Shown here: piece by piece, positions 41,599 to 50,047 of the stretch
Numbering within the stretch: position 1 is the first letter of the stretch
How the letters are laid out: each line of letters opens with the position of its first letter
Assembly: GCF_037038585.1 (NCBI RefSeq)
Contig: NC_092556.1
Span: forward strand, 450,619 to 514,618
Origin: Patagioenas fasciata
Taxonomy: Eukaryota
Reading direction: 5' to 3'
Length of the DNA: 64,000 nucleotides
Notes under the pieces: generated by a model
Told to the model about the DNA's origin: nothing
What the model saw: the letters and a program-made list of their open reading frames with translations, nothing else
The model's database searches: none
Program-made: the position numbers and the translations under genes

Positions 41599-41764
41599 GC
41601 TGCGGGCGCCCCCTGGCGGGGCTGTCGCGCAACGTGGGCGGTGAGGACGCGGGGGAGGGGCGGTGGCCCTGGCAGGGGTCCCTGCAGCGCCGCGGCCGCC
41701 ACGTCTGCGGGGCCTCGCTGGTGGCGCCCGCCTGGGTGCTCACGGCCGCCCACTGCTTCCAGAC
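41599..41764 (+). CDS. Serine protease exon 3: (S)[54 protein letters not shown](T), containing the catalytic His
   Basis: Matches testisin/PRSS21 [54 protein letters not shown]. Acceptor ccccag|GCTGCG. Donor CAGAC|gtgaga. Confidence 0.85.
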
Positions 41765-41799
41765 GTGAGAGCGGGGGGGGGGGCATGGGGATGGGGGGG

Positions 41800-43325
41800 T
41801 CACATGGGGGGGGTCACATGACGGGGGGTGGTTATGGGGCTGGGGGGGGCAGATGGGGCTGAGGGGTGGGGGTCACATGGGGCTGGGGGGGTCACATGGG
41901 GCTGGGGGGCGTGGTTATGGGGCTGGCGGGTGGGGGTCCCATGGGGCTGGGGGGGTCACATGGGGCTGGGGGTGGGGTCCCATGGGGCTGGGGGGGTCCC
42001 ATGGGGCTGGGGGGGTTGTGGGGTGGGGGGCTATGGGGCTGGAAGGGGGTTGTGCGGGTAAGGGGGATCACATGGGGCTGGGGTGACCCCATCGCCCCCC
42101 ATTGCCCCCATTGCCCCCATTGCCCCATTGTCCCCATTGCCCCCATTGTCCCCATTGCCCCCATTGCCCCCATTGCCCCAAATGTCCCCATTGCCCCCAT
42201 TGCCCCCATTGTCCCCATTGCCCCCATTGCCCCCATTGCCCCATTGTCCCCATTGCCCCATTGCCCCATTGCCCCCATTGCCCCATTGCCCCCATTACCC
42301 CCATTGCCCCATTGCCCCCATTGCCCCCATTGCCCCCATTGCCCCATTGTCCCCATTGTCCCATTGCCCCCATTGCCCCCATTGCCCCATTGTCCCCATT
42401 GCCCCCATTGCCCCATTGCCCCCATTGCCCCCATTGCCCCATTGCCCCCATTGCCCCCCATTGCCCCATTGCCCCCATTGCCCCCATTGCCCCATTGTCC
42501 CCATTGCCCCATTGCCCCATTGCCCCCATTGCCCCATTGCCCCCATTACCCCCATTGCCCCATTGCCCCCATTGCCCCCATTGCCCCCATTGCCCCCATT
42601 GCCCCATTGCCCCCATTGCCCCATTGTCCCCATTGCCCCCAATGTCCCCATTGCCCCCATTGCCCCCATTGTCCCCATTGCCCCCATTGCCCCCATTGAC
42701 CCCCATTGCCCCCATTGCCCCCATTGCCCCCATCGCCCCCATTGTCCCCATTGCCCCCATTGCCCCCATTGACCCCCATTGCCCCCATCGCCCCCATTGT
42801 CCCCATTGCCCCCATTGCCCCCAATGCCCCATTGCCCCATTACCCCCATTACCCCCATTGCCCCATTGCCCCCATTGCCCCCATTGCCCCATTGCCCCCA
42901 TTGCCCCCATTACCCCCATTACCCCCAATGTCCCCATTGCCCCCATCGCCCCCATTGCCCCCATTGCCTCATTGCCCCCATTGTCCCCATTGTCCCCATT
43001 ACCCCCATTGCCCCATTGCCCCCATTGTCCCCATTGCCCCCATTGTCCCCATTGCCCCCATTGCCCCCATTGCCCCCATTACCCCCATTGCCCCCATTGC
43101 CCCCATTACCCCCATTGCCCCCATTGCCCCCATTGCCCCCATTACCCCCATTACCCCCATTGTCCCCAATGTCCCCATTACCCCCAATGCCCCCATTACC
43201 CCCACCGCCCCCATTACCCCCACCGCCCCCATTACCCCCAATGCCCCCATTACCCCCACCGCCCCCATTGCCCCCATTACCCCCATCCCCCCCATCCCCC
43301 CCATCCCCCCCATCCCCCCCATCGC
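41800..43325. repeat. GGGGCTGGGGGGGTCACATGG-type array, then a long (CCCCATTGCCC)n minisatellite
   Basis: Direct reading. It generates the spurious ORFs 42102..43643 and 42068..42964 (minus strand), among others. Confidence 0.9.
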
Positions 43326-43333
43326 CCCCACAG

Positions 43334-46009: not shown

Positions 46010-49000
46010 CGGAGGTGTCACCGGGGGGGGTGGAACCACTGGGTGGGCACCAGAACCCCCTGAGATGTCACCATGGGGGGTGGAACCATTGGGTGGGCAC
46101 CAGAACCCCCTGGAGATGCCACCATAGGGGTCACCAACCCACCCTTGATCCCCAAGATGTCCTCAAGAACCACTGGGTGGGCACCAGAACCCCCTGGAGA
46201 TGTCACCATGGGGGGTGGAACCATTGGGTGGGCACCAGAACCCCCTGGAGATGCCACCATGGGTGTCCCCAACCCATCTTTGACCCCCAAAATGTCCTCA
46301 AGAACCACTTGGTGGGCACCAAAAGGTCCTTGAGGTGTCACCATGGGGGGATGGAACCATTTGGTGGGCACCAGAACCCCCTGGAGATGTCACCATGGGG
46401 GGTGGAACCATTGGGTGGGCACCAGAACCCACTTGAGATGCCACCATGGGGGGTGGAACCATTGGGTGGGCACCAGAACCCACTTGAGATGCCACCATGG
46501 GGGGTGGAACCATTGGGTGGGCACCAGAACCCCCTGGAGATGTCACCATGGGGGGTGGAACCATTGGGTGGGCACCAGAAGCCCCTGGAGATGTCACCAT
46601 GGGGGGTGGAACCATTGGGTGGGCACCAGAACCCCCTGGAGATGCCACCATGGGGGGTGGAACCATTGGGTGGGCACCAGAACCCCCTGGAGATGTCACC
46701 ATGGGGGGTGGAACCATTGGGTGGGCACCAGAACCCCTGGAGATGTCACCATGGGGGGTGGAACCATTGGGTGGGCACCAGAACCCCCTGGAGATGCCAC
46801 CATGGGGGGTGGAACCATTGGGTGGGCACCAGAACCCCCTGGAGATGTCACCATGGGGGGTGGAACCATTGGGTGGGCACCAGAACCCCCTGGAGATGCC
46901 ACCATGGGGGGTGGAACCACTGGGTGGGCACCAGAACCCCCTGGAGATGCCACCATGGGTGTCCCCAACCCATCCTTGACCCCCAATGGGGGTCAATGGG
47001 ACCCAACAGGGACTGGATGGGGTCAAGGGCACCCAATGGGATCCAACCGTGGCCAAGGGTACCCAATGGGGGTCAACGGCACCCAATGAGATCCAGCCGT
47101 GGACAAGGGTACCCAATGGGGATCAAGGGCACCCAATGGGGGTCAAGGGCACCCAATGAGATCCAACCATGGCCAAGGGCACCCAATGGGGGATCCAATG
47201 GGAGTCAAGGGCACCCAAGGGCACCCAACAGGGGTCAAGGGCATCCAATGGGGGTCAAGGGCACCCAATAGGACCCAACCATGGCCAAGGGCTCCCAATG
47301 AAGATCAAGGGCACCCAATGAAGATCAAGGGCACCCAATGGGGGTCAAGGGCACCCAATGGGGAACAAGGGCACCCAATGGGACCCAACCATGGCCAAGG
47401 GCTCCCAATGAAGATCAAGGGCACCCAATGGGGGTCAAGGGCACCCAATGGGGATCAAGGGCACCCAATGGGACCCAACCATGGCCAAGGGCTCCCAATG
47501 AAGATCAAGGGCACCCAATGGGGGTCAAGGGCACCCAATGAGGGTCAAGGGCACCCAACGGGACCCAACCATGTCCAAGGGCACCCAATGGGGGTCAATG
47601 GCACCCAATGGGGTCCAAGGGCACCCAACAGGACCCAACCATGGCCAAGGGCTCCCAATGAAGATCAAGGGCACCCAATAGGACCCAACCATGGCCAAGG
47701 GCACCCAATGGGGGTCAAGGACACCCAATGGGGTTCAAGGGCACCCAATGGGACCCAACCATGGCCAAGGGCACCCAATGAAGATCAAGGGCACCCAATG
47801 GGGGTCAAGGGCACCCAACGGGACCCAACCATGGCCAAGGGCTCCTAATGAAGATCAAGGGCACCCAATGGGGGTCATGGGCACCCAATGGGACCCAACC
47901 ATGGCCAAGGGCTCCCAATGAAGATCAAGGGCACCCAACGGGGGTCAAGGACACCCAATGGGACCCAACCATGGCCAAGGGCACCCAATGGGGGTCAATG
48001 GCACCCAATGGGGGTCAAGGACACCCAATGGGACCCAACCATGGCCAAGGGCACCCAATGAAGATCAAGGGCACCCAATGGGGGTCAAGGGCACCCAATG
48101 GGGATCAAGGACACCCAATGGGACCCAACCATGGCCAAGGGCTCCCAATGAAGATCAAGGGCACCCAATGGGGGTCAAGGGCACCCAATGGGGAACAAGG
48201 GCACCCAATAGGACCCAACCATGGCCAAGGGCACCCAATGAAGATCAAGGGCACCCAATGGGGGTCAAGGGCACCCAATGGGGAACAAGGGCACCCAATA
48301 GGACCCAACCATGGCCAAGGGCACCCAATGAAGATCAAGGGCACCCAATGAAGATCAAGGGCACCCAACGGGACCCAACCATGGCCAAGGGCACCCAATG
48401 GGGGTCAAGGGCACCCAACGGGACCCAACCATGGCCAAGGGCACCCAATGGGGGTCAAGGACACCCAATGGGGTTCAAGGGCACACAATGGGACCCAACC
48501 GTGGCCAAGGGCACCCAATGAAGATCAAGGGCACCCAATGGGGGTCAAGGGCACCCAACGGGACCCAACCATGGCCAAGGGCACCCAATGGGGGTCAAGG
48601 GCACCCAATGGGGGTCAAGGGCACCCAACAGGACCCAACCATGGCCAAGGGCTCCCAATGAAGATCAAGGGCACCCAATAGGACCCAACCATGGCCAAGG
48701 GCACCCAATGGGGGTCAAGGACACCCAATGGGGTTCAAGGGCACCCAATGGGACCCAACCATGGCCAAGGGCACCCAATGGGGGTCAAGGACACCCAATG
48801 GGGTTCAAGGGCACCCAATAGGACCCAACCATGGCCAAGGGTTCCCAATGAAGATCAAGGGCTCCCAATGGGGAACAAGGGCACCCAATGGGACCCAACC
48901 ATGGCCAAGGGCACCCAATGAAGATCAAGGGCACCCAATGGGGGTCAAGGGCACCCAATGGGGATCAAGGACACCCAACGGGACCCAACCATGGCCAAGG

Positions 49001-49620
49001 GCTCCCAATGAAGATCAAGGGCACCCAATGGGGGTCAAGGGCACCCAATGGGGATCAAGGACACCCAATGGGACCCAACCATGGCCAAGGGCTCCCAATG
49101 AAGATCAAGGGCACCCAATGGGGGTCAAGGGCACCCAATGGGGAACAAGGGCACCCAATAGGACCCAACCATGGCCAAGGGCACCCAATGAAGATCAAGG
49201 GCACCCAATGGGGGTCAAGGGCACCCAATGGGGAACAAGGGCACCCAATAGGACCCAACCATGTCCAAGGGCTCCCAATGAAGAACAAGGGCACCCAATA
49301 GGACCCAACCATGGCCAAGGGCACCCAATGGGGGTCAAGGGCACCCAATGGGGGTCAAGAACACCCAATGGAACCCAACCATGGCCAAGGGCACCCAATG
49401 AAGATCAAGGGCACCCAACGGGACCCAACCATGGCCAAGGGCTCCGAATGAAGATCAAGGGCACCCAATGGGGGTCATGGGCACCCAATGGGACCCAGCC
49501 ATGGCCAAGGGCTCCCAATGGGGATCAAGGGCACCCAACAGGACCCAACCGTGTCCAAGGGCACCCAATGGGGGACCCAACGTGGGTCAATGGCACCCAA
49601 GCTGCCCCCCCCATGTCCCC
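46010..49620. repeat. ~59-bp GGGGGTGGAACCATTGGGTGGGCACCAGAACCCCCTGGAGATGTCACCAT satellite, then a long GGGTCAAGGGCACCCAATGG(GACCCAACCATGGCCAAGG) satellite
   Basis: Direct reading. It generates dozens of the listed spurious ORFs. Confidence 0.9.
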
Positions 49621-49648
49621 CCCCTCGGTGACCCCACCCTCCCCCTAG

Positions 49649-50047
49649 GGCGACTCGGGGGGCCCCCTGGTTTGCCGCGCCGGGGGGCGCTGGGTGCTGA
49701 CCGGCATCGTGAGCTGGGGCGAGGGCTGCGCCGTCCCCAACCGGCCCGGCGTCTACACCCGCGTCAGCGCCTACGCCCGCTGGATCGGGCCCCGCGCGCC
49801 CCGCGTCACCTTCGTCACCGACCCCCGCGGGGACACCGAGAGCCCCGGGGACACGGCGGGCGAGAACGGGGCGGAAACGGGCGGAAATGGGGCGGAAACG
49901 GGCGAAAACGGGGCGGAAACGGGGGAAAACGGGGCCGGAATGGGGCAGAACGGGGCCGGAATGGGGCCGAGCGGGGCGCTCGGCGGCGTCGGCAGCATCG
50001 GCCTCCTTGGGGGTGTTGGGGTCGCGCTCCTGTTGGGGGCGCTGTGA
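49649..50047 (+). CDS. Serine protease terminal exon: [46 protein letters not shown]... followed by a Gly/Ala-rich linker (GENGAETG repeats) and a hydrophobic C-tail [24 protein letters not shown] that looks like a GPI anchor signal
   Basis: The catalytic Ser motif GDSGGP and the SWG motif are present. Testisin, marapsin and prostasin show similar C-terminal anchoring. Acceptor ccccctag|. Stop TGA at 50045-50047. Confidence 0.85.

Follow-up and report, generated by a model that had tools for sequence, protein, structure and literature searches.

From the 64,000 nucleotides of the Patagioenas fasciata genome analysed here (the window; RefSeq assembly GCF_037038585.1, contig NC_092556.1, positions 450,619 to 514,618 of the forward strand), we describe a serine protease gene on the + strand, at positions 39157–50047 of the window, whose six coding exons, all bordered by AG and GT, join into an open frame of 374 codons. 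We propose that its product is a functional, membrane-tethered tryptic protease, a PRSS27/marapsin-like enzyme of sauropsids, in which a polar N-terminus (Asn16) would weaken the Ile16-Asp194 switch; from the sequence comparisons described below we would put the probability of this at about 0.55. As far as the literature was searched, an ancient and near-universal polar Asn16 in the reptile and bird lineage of an otherwise canonical enzyme is new. The search, which had the primary marapsin/pancreasin papers outside its reach, returned no paper describing Asn16 in the sauropsid clade.

The activation site reads SR|NVGG, with Arg50 and Asn51 of the precursor corresponding to residues 15 and 16 in chymotrypsin numbering. 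The first-pass annotation of this DNA had placed an Asn at the new N-terminus and had asked whether it was a sequencing error, in which case orthologues should carry ATC or GTC. The codon found was AAC instead: the homologous site in the genomic DNA of emu and alligator, from independent assemblies, reads CGC AAC GTG GGG GGC GAG, and Asn is present in more than 30 orthologous proteins, so that the residue must be regarded as real. The locus itself, which lies within kilobases of minisatellite and has exon 3 partly triplicated, might raise the suspicion of faulty sequencing or assembly, or of a pseudogene decaying among satellites, as might the start of the species' own RefSeq model at an ATG inside an intronic satellite. 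Given the emu and alligator DNA and the orthologous proteins, an open frame with canonical splice sites throughout, and no loss of any catalytic residue, the probability of this explanation is negligible. An alternative upstream exon with a canonical activation site was also looked for. A six-frame search of the 64-kb window for [RK]x[VIL]GG together with a WPW-type context gave three NVGG copies only, and tblastn of seven paralogues against the same window returned exons of this gene only, with none upstream of SRRM2.

In protein searches R|NVGG was found in pigeons, cuckoos, ostrich, emu, rhea, tinamou, parrots, chicken, alligator, several turtles, many squamates and the tuatara. The exceptions were two passerines with R|AVGG, and one passerine and one turtle with R|SVGG. 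Residue 16 was Asn in 26 members of a 29-sequence sauropsid set, Ser in two and Ala in one. Arg15 is invariant in every orthologue, and the Leu at -3 (L-x-R) is kept in mammals (MLNR|M), reptiles (ALNR|N) and birds (GLSR|N). We take Asn16 for an ancient trait, maintained by selection throughout the reptile and bird lineage, and not for an error.

The rarity of this residue was surveyed by aligning every S1 domain in two match lists to a profile and reading position 16. An exhaustive search among representatives at 50% identity yielded 141 proteins with 330 S1 domains, in which 287 sites were preceded by Arg or Lys. Residue 16 at these sites was Ile (246), Val (27), Leu (7), Ser (2), Ala (2), Lys (1), Thr (1) or Glu (1), and never Asn. 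When both lists were pooled, all 32 R|N sites fell within the sauropsid clade; the sole other two occurrences of Asn16 were Q|NFGG, in internal polyserase domains lacking the Arg.

Pfam Trypsin (PF00089) matches residues 52–288 with 221.8 bits (cut-off 20.6; E-value 1.3e-65). By sequence, the closest solved structure is that of human prostasin (E-value 8.6e-79). The AlphaFold model shows the double beta-barrel fold, its core having predicted local distance difference test (pLDDT) values mostly of 80–98, and is closest to the prostasin structures 3dfj and 3e0n in PDB (template modelling (TM) score 0.89–0.90, 48–49% identity). The Pfam, paralogue and structure matches agree with the original assignment to S1 proteases of the 16p13.3-type prostasin/testisin/PRSS27 group. 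The AAHC, DIAL and GDSGGP motifs and the conserved cysteines, likewise reported as intact, were all located in exons 3–6. Residues kept in the pigeon protein are His40, His57, Asp102, Trp141-Gly142, Asp189, Gly193, Asp194, Ser195, Ser214-Trp215-Gly216 and Gly226, together with the cysteine pairs C42/C58, C136/C201, C168/C182 and C191/C220, and C122 with the propeptide Cys. Across the members of the clade, His40, His57, Asp102, Asp189, Gly193, Asp194, Ser195, Gly216, Gly226 and all cysteines are unchanged, barring obviously faulty gene models, and the oxyanion and S1 architecture is retained in essentially every orthologue examined. Since the catalytic apparatus is unchanged from tuatara to birds, we argue that catalysis is retained. 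The protein departs from the canonical S1A activation switch at residue 16, where the hydrophobic Ile or Val is replaced by Asn; Arg15 and Asp194 are both present.

In blastp at the domain level, the pigeon protein scored 260–265 bits against mammalian PRSS27, 218–230 against PRSS33 and 205 against testisin (44% identity, the lowest). The alligator Asn16 protein, which is less GC-skewed, gave 291–305 bits with PRSS27, 225–234 with PRSS33 and 208 with testisin. A neighbour-joining tree was calculated on Kimura distances with 100 bootstrap replicates, the activation-site columns being excluded. The birds formed a group in 100% of replicates, the non-avian Asn16 clade in 74% and mammalian PRSS27 in 82%. 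In the tree these three are joined with the turtle IVGG and lizard IVKG paralogues, and PRSS33 and testisin fall outside. Lys192, Leu158 and Glu217 are present both in the sauropsid clade and in PRSS27, as against Gln192, Val158 and Lys217 in PRSS33, and the activation motif is (M)LNR|MVGG in mammalian PRSS27 versus (A)LNR|NVGG in reptiles. The names given to the orthologues in RefSeq are inconsistent ('27', '27-like', '33' and '33-like'). We would class the protein as a PRSS27/marapsin-like member of the prostasin-testisin-tryptase cluster, a placement that is weakly resolved, and strict orthology is not claimed. Identity with PRSS33 was considered and rejected; PRSS33 has R|IVGG and Gln192 and lacks a membrane tail at its C-terminus, and the pigeon protein differs on all of these.

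The gene had initially been called testisin-family, a label which is not supported in its strict sense. Testisin is the most distant of the compared paralogues (205 bits and 44% identity, versus 260–265 bits for PRSS27), and PRSS27/marapsin is also the paralogue whose signature the pigeon protein carries: L-x-R before a residue 16 other than Ile, Lys192, Leu158 and the tail at the C-terminus. The term is acceptable only loosely, for the GPI-anchored prostasin/testisin group (GPI, glycosylphosphatidylinositol). If the gene were the avian orthologue of testisin (PRSS21), its GPI-like tail would be accounted for, as would its position on the ELOB side of the cluster, where it is transcribed in the same orientation as human PRSS21. 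The score, the lowest of those compared, makes such orthology very improbable, as does the tree, in which the testisin sequences fall outside the clade. Testisin moreover has R|VVGG, without Leu158 and Glu217.

Both C-terminal elements described in the first-pass annotation, a GENGAETG repeat linker followed by a hydrophobic tail, were located in exon 6. The tail (49976–50044, + strand) comprises 23 uncharged residues (352–374), is predicted to be helical and runs to the stop codon, resembling a GPI signal or a tail-anchor segment. Its maximum Kyte-Doolittle mean over 15 residues is 2.23, one residue from the end, and Gly, Asn and Ser candidates for the omega site lie upstream, as judged heuristically. 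Similar tails, with few or no charges and ending 0–7 residues from the C-terminus after small residues, were seen in the majority of orthologues from birds and reptiles, as well as in PRSS27 of mammals other than human; none was found in PRSS33. This layout is plausibly that of a GPI attachment signal rather than of a type I transmembrane anchor. The GPI-like look of the tail thus stands, and its layout is conserved; the anchor itself is put forward here on a heuristic basis. The linker includes a coding minisatellite (49857–49961, + strand) of about five copies of a 21-nt unit, which gives GENGAET repeats at residues ~312–347 and is disordered in the AlphaFold model (pLDDT < 50). The Nicobar pigeon, cuckoo and ratite orthologues lack the repeat, which is therefore probably a recent expansion in the linker. 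It is made of GGGGC/AATGG-like words, as are the surrounding non-coding satellites.

Based upon these features, the enzyme would be synthesized as a zymogen with a signal peptide, a short propeptide, one trypsin-fold domain whose Asp189, with Thr190 beside it, points to tryptic (Arg/Lys) specificity, and a disordered linker rich in Gly that ends in the hydrophobic tail, which would most likely direct GPI attachment. A trypsin-like convertase would cut after Arg50, freeing Asn51, and the propeptide would remain tied to the catalytic domain through a disulfide between its Cys and Cys122, resulting in a two-chain form. The alpha-amino group of Asn51 should still be able to pair with the retained Asp194, and the Asn side chain would lack the hydrophobic packing given by Ile or Val. 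Packing of Ile16 stabilizes the active state by ~4–5 kcal/mol and the salt bridge by ~2–3 kcal/mol (PMC13194640, citing trypsinogen mutagenesis); an enzyme with Asn16 is therefore expected to be shifted to a zymogen-like ensemble. It would sit nearer to the zymogen-like state, with reduced intrinsic activity, and would depend more on substrate, cofactor or membrane context to become fully active. The passerines have moved from Asn to Ala or Ser and never to Ile, which suggests that a bulky hydrophobic residue is no longer needed, or no longer tolerated, in the residue-16 pocket. Almost throughout the clade, sequences with Asn, Ser or Ala at position 16 have Thr190; mammalian PRSS27 has Ala190. 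Perhaps Thr190 might compensate for the change at residue 16.

Two further possibilities were considered and rejected. A bypass between Lys156 and Asp194 of the type found in tPA is not available, as Gln occupies position 156 and position 157 varies. Asn16 is not a site of N-glycosylation, since N-V-G is no sequon, and N-x-S/T occurs nowhere in the protein.

Several results weigh against an active PRSS27-like enzyme. The gene lies on the ELOB side of SRRM2 in pigeon and next to ELOB in emu, which is not the position of human PRSS27; in human, PRSS27 is located between KCTD5 and SRRM2, beyond SRRM2 as seen from ELOB, and the gene adjoining ELOB is PRSS33. The union of the birds and the non-avian Asn16 clade with PRSS27 in the neighbour-joining tree has a bootstrap value of only 22%. 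The tail is Gly-rich. Crude Nei-Gojobori ratios of nonsynonymous to synonymous substitution (dN/dS) were 0.47 for pigeon-emu, 0.59 for pigeon-alligator and 0.74 for emu-alligator, and overall constraint is therefore weak and the protein fast-evolving; dS is probably underestimated at the GC-saturated third positions. Finally, proteases with a polar or charged residue 16 can be inactive, as is PRSS23 (PMC13194640), or use another N-terminus, as does KLK10 (PMC5551965).

These last points bear on two alternatives. In the first, the switch cannot close at all and the protein is a pseudoprotease, or is permanently zymogen-like, acting by binding; it might, for instance, serve another protease as a membrane-tethered decoy or partner. 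Protease-independent roles have been described for prostasin. The fairly high dN/dS (0.47–0.74) and the complete lack of Asn at the 287 other activation sites would be in keeping with such a protein, and so would the passerine changes to Ala or Ser, given that AAC to ATC is a single step. PRSS23, which has Gln at its mature N-terminus, has no detectable activity (PMC13194640), but that protein also lacks Asp194 and His40, both of which are kept here. Without catalysis it is hard to see why essentially every orthologue examined should have preserved the triad, Asp189, Gly193 and the architecture of the oxyanion and S1 sites, and the invariance of Arg15 implies that cleavage there still matters. 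We therefore consider loss of activity unlikely.

In the second alternative the protease is active but reaches its active state from another N-terminus or by another route: a start at the conserved Leu of L-x-R-N as in KLK10, a cut after the Asn by an asparaginyl endopeptidase, or activation induced by cofactor or substrate without N-terminal insertion. KLK10, with Glu16, is active only from Leu13 and is zymogen-like in crystals (PMC5551965), and the Leu at -3 is conserved from mammals through reptiles to birds. This Leu may, however, simply be the P3 residue recognized by the convertase. An invariant Arg15 in the standard x-V-G-G register suits ordinary tryptic activation, and a start at Val17 would probably set the amino group out of register with Asp194. 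Such a route is accordingly one that we hold to be quite improbable, and cleavage after Arg15 to release Asn16 remains our preferred model.

A wider and rather doubtful reading is that the PRSS27-like proteases of reptiles and birds form a natural class of S1 enzymes, from which the hydrophobic plug of Ile16 was lost at an early stage of reptile evolution. Their activation or restraint would then follow another mechanism, either through polar contacts of Asn16 in a remodelled pocket, with Thr190 accompanying it, or through cofactor or substrate activating a membrane protease that is otherwise zymogen-like. The Met16 of mammalian PRSS27 would represent a milder shift in the same direction.

PRSS27 (marapsin/pancreasin) is the nearest of the known proteases. 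It gives the highest paralogue similarity with the pigeon and alligator queries (260–305 bits) and shares L-x-R with a residue 16 other than Ile or Val, Lys192, Leu158, Glu217, an uncharged hydrophobic C-terminal tail, and location in the cluster around SRRM2. It differs in that its residue 16 is Met (Leu in pig) and hence still hydrophobic, and that its residue 190 is Ala and not Thr; in addition, reptiles hold further PRSS27-like paralogues with IVGG or IVKG. Among solved structures, prostasin (PRSS8) comes closest (E-value 8.6e-79, TM score 0.9, 48–49% identity); it is a tryptic protease with a GPI anchor and two chains tethered by a disulfide, but is a separate paralogue with a canonical Ile16 (ITGG) and Gln192. 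Testisin, which is GPI-anchored and belongs to the same cluster, resembles the pigeon protein in domain layout, and differs in its 44% identity, its R|VVGG and its place outside the clade. PRSS33 has been linked to this gene by name, RefSeq calling the pigeon protein 'serine protease 33-like', and by its own adjacency to ELOB in human, which this gene matches in pigeon and emu; it is set apart by R|IVGG, Gln192, Val158, the lack of a C-terminal hydrophobic tail and a lower score.

Two proteases outside this group are precedents for a polar or charged residue 16, and they point in both directions. In the S1 protease KLK10 the triad and Asp194 are intact, residue 16 (Glu) is not hydrophobic and the conformation is zymogen-like (PMC5551965), but KLK10 belongs to an unrelated subfamily, is secreted, has Ser193, and carries an N-terminus three residues longer. 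PRSS23 has Gln16 and Ala194, has also lost His40, and is a pseudoprotease (PMC13194640); the pigeon protein, unlike the inactive PRSS23, keeps both Asp194 and His40.

All features of the gene lie on the + strand. The coding part of exon 1 (39157–39241) begins with the ATG, encodes the putative signal peptide MGTPDPLLPLLLLLLLPDPRRATHGCES and ends at a phase-1 GT donor; a RefSeq model of the Nicobar pigeon (Caloenas) has this N-terminus too. A Leu-rich h-region at residues 7–16, with a helix predicted at 7–14, was recognized from sequence reading and the AlphaFold model. Exon 2 (40039–40071) is a micro-exon of 33 nt with an AG acceptor and a GTGAGT donor, and encodes GSPGPLTRSKF, the counterpart of which in Caloenas is GSPGQLTRSKI. 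Exon 3 (41599–41764) contains the propeptide Cys, Arg15 (41628–41630), Asn16 (AAC, 41631–41633), Val-Gly-Gly, His40, Cys42, His57 (41751–41753) and Cys58. Exon 4 (43334–43605) contributes Asp102 (43467–43469), Cys122, Cys136 and TGWG (139–142), and exon 5 (45835–46004) Leu155-Pro161, Cys168, Cys182, Asp189 (45993–45995), Thr190, Cys191 and Lys192. Exon 6 (49649–50047) opens with Gly193-Asp194-Ser195 (49649–49657; Asp194 at 49652–49654 and Ser195 at 49655–49657), and continues with Cys201, SWGEGC, the end of the domain, the linker, the tail and the TGA stop codon (50045–50047).

The gene is already public as a RefSeq prediction. The mature protein (334 residues from the propeptide Cys) is a 100% match to the Patagioenas fasciata model 'serine protease 33-like'. 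That model begins at an ATG at 41571, in a CCCC(A/T)TG-type intronic satellite (41571–41598), and is read through the acceptor of exon 3; it thus lacks exons 1 and 2 (39157–39241 and 40039–40071) and hence the signal peptide. Because exons 1 and 2 match the N-terminus of the Nicobar pigeon model, they are taken as a better protein start than the ATG at 41571. They lie outside the interval 41599–50047 to which the gene had at first been confined and are needed for the 374 residues reported with it, a length that the six-exon frame reproduces exactly. A putative core promoter (39052–39116, + strand), found with a tandem-repeat scan (TRF; repeat at 39052–39101) and by reading the sequence, consists of four tandem CCCCGCCCCACGG GC-boxes followed by ATTTAAA (39110–39116), 41 nt 5' of the ATG. 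We infer that this may be the promoter of the protease gene.

The gene order in pigeon is SRRM2 (+; N-terminal exons with the cwf21 domain, 13304–15317), ELOB (-; three coding exons, 35873–33537) and the protease (+). Both neighbours were thus located immediately upstream of the protease, as the proposed SRRM2-ELOB-PRSS position demands. ELOB and the protease are arranged head-to-head, ~2 kb apart. The start of ELOB seems to be a lone ATG (~37207–37209, - strand) followed by a GT donor (CCATTATG|GTGAGC), beside a CCAAT / GCCATCTTG-type promoter. In emu (CM072418.1) the order is ELOB (-), a single protease (+) and a PKMYT1-like kinase; PKMYT1 was looked for at 50–64 kb of the pigeon window and was not found. 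In alligator (AKHW03000444.1, 1–26453), three trypsin-domain genes stand in a row around the Asn16 gene. Comparison of the three trypsin genes in alligator with the one in emu suggests that in birds the cluster has shrunk here to a single protease gene. Upstream of SRRM2, an open segment at 3764–4255 (-) matches the start of Pfam Fibrinogen_C (4e-06), with a weak collagen-repeat match before it, and resembles a ficolin exon; this is the site which, in human, is occupied by PRSS27.

The introns and flanks are almost wholly minisatellite, including a 9-mer (CCCCATTGC), a 20-mer (CAAGGGCACCCAATGGGGAT), a 51-mer and others. Two truncated pseudo-copies of exon 3, each corresponding to its first 85 nt and retaining the CCCCAG acceptor, precede the real exon on the + strand. 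The first (41314–41398) has two substitutions relative to the exon and runs into the CCCCATTG satellite, and the second (41443–41527) is identical to the exon. Both sit in a tandem unit of ~129 bp and enter satellite before the part encoding His57. The first-pass annotation had reported SR-NVGG in all three exon copies; SRNVGG does occur in all three, which are one real exon and two truncated, partial copies. Pseudo-copy 2 and the real exon 3 each hold GGCG|GTGAGG, a consensus-like donor 42 nt in. It is speculative, but splicing through this donor would add 14 residues in frame, repeating the propeptide and activation site.

The window contains 67 occurrences of a 22-nt motif (GGGACCCAGGCGTCCGGGCCCC), with 0 expected, in arrays at 38023–39011 (+), 39244–40018 (-) and 62423–63833 (+). 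Of these, 21 precede the protease promoter and 16 lie in reverse complement within intron 1, the third array being near the end of the window. Exon 1 and the promoter (39012–39243) are thus flanked by an inverted pair of these arrays. Exon 4 (272 nt, not a multiple of 3) also stands between inverted satellites, with ~140 copies of CCCCATTGC in intron 3 (42087–43330) and the reverse-complement GGGGCAATG type in intron 4 (43619–44616). The arms of these arrays are 75–79% complementary over ~400 nt. Pairing of the arms in the pre-mRNA could loop out exon 4, leading to exon skipping or to a circular RNA.

In other respects the pigeon gene is a predicted member of a well-known family, and we know of no physiology described for this protease in birds. 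For the annotation of the species, the RefSeq model of P. fasciata is shown to miss the signal-peptide exons. The Ile16-Asp194 switch is among the most conserved regulatory devices of the trypsin family, and its natural exceptions, KLK10, PRSS23, tPA and factor VIIa, have been informative on zymogenicity and allostery. An enzyme that has kept all of its catalytic residues, and that carries a polar Asn16 in nearly every reptile and bird lineage sampled, would constitute a natural experiment on the need for the hydrophobic plug.

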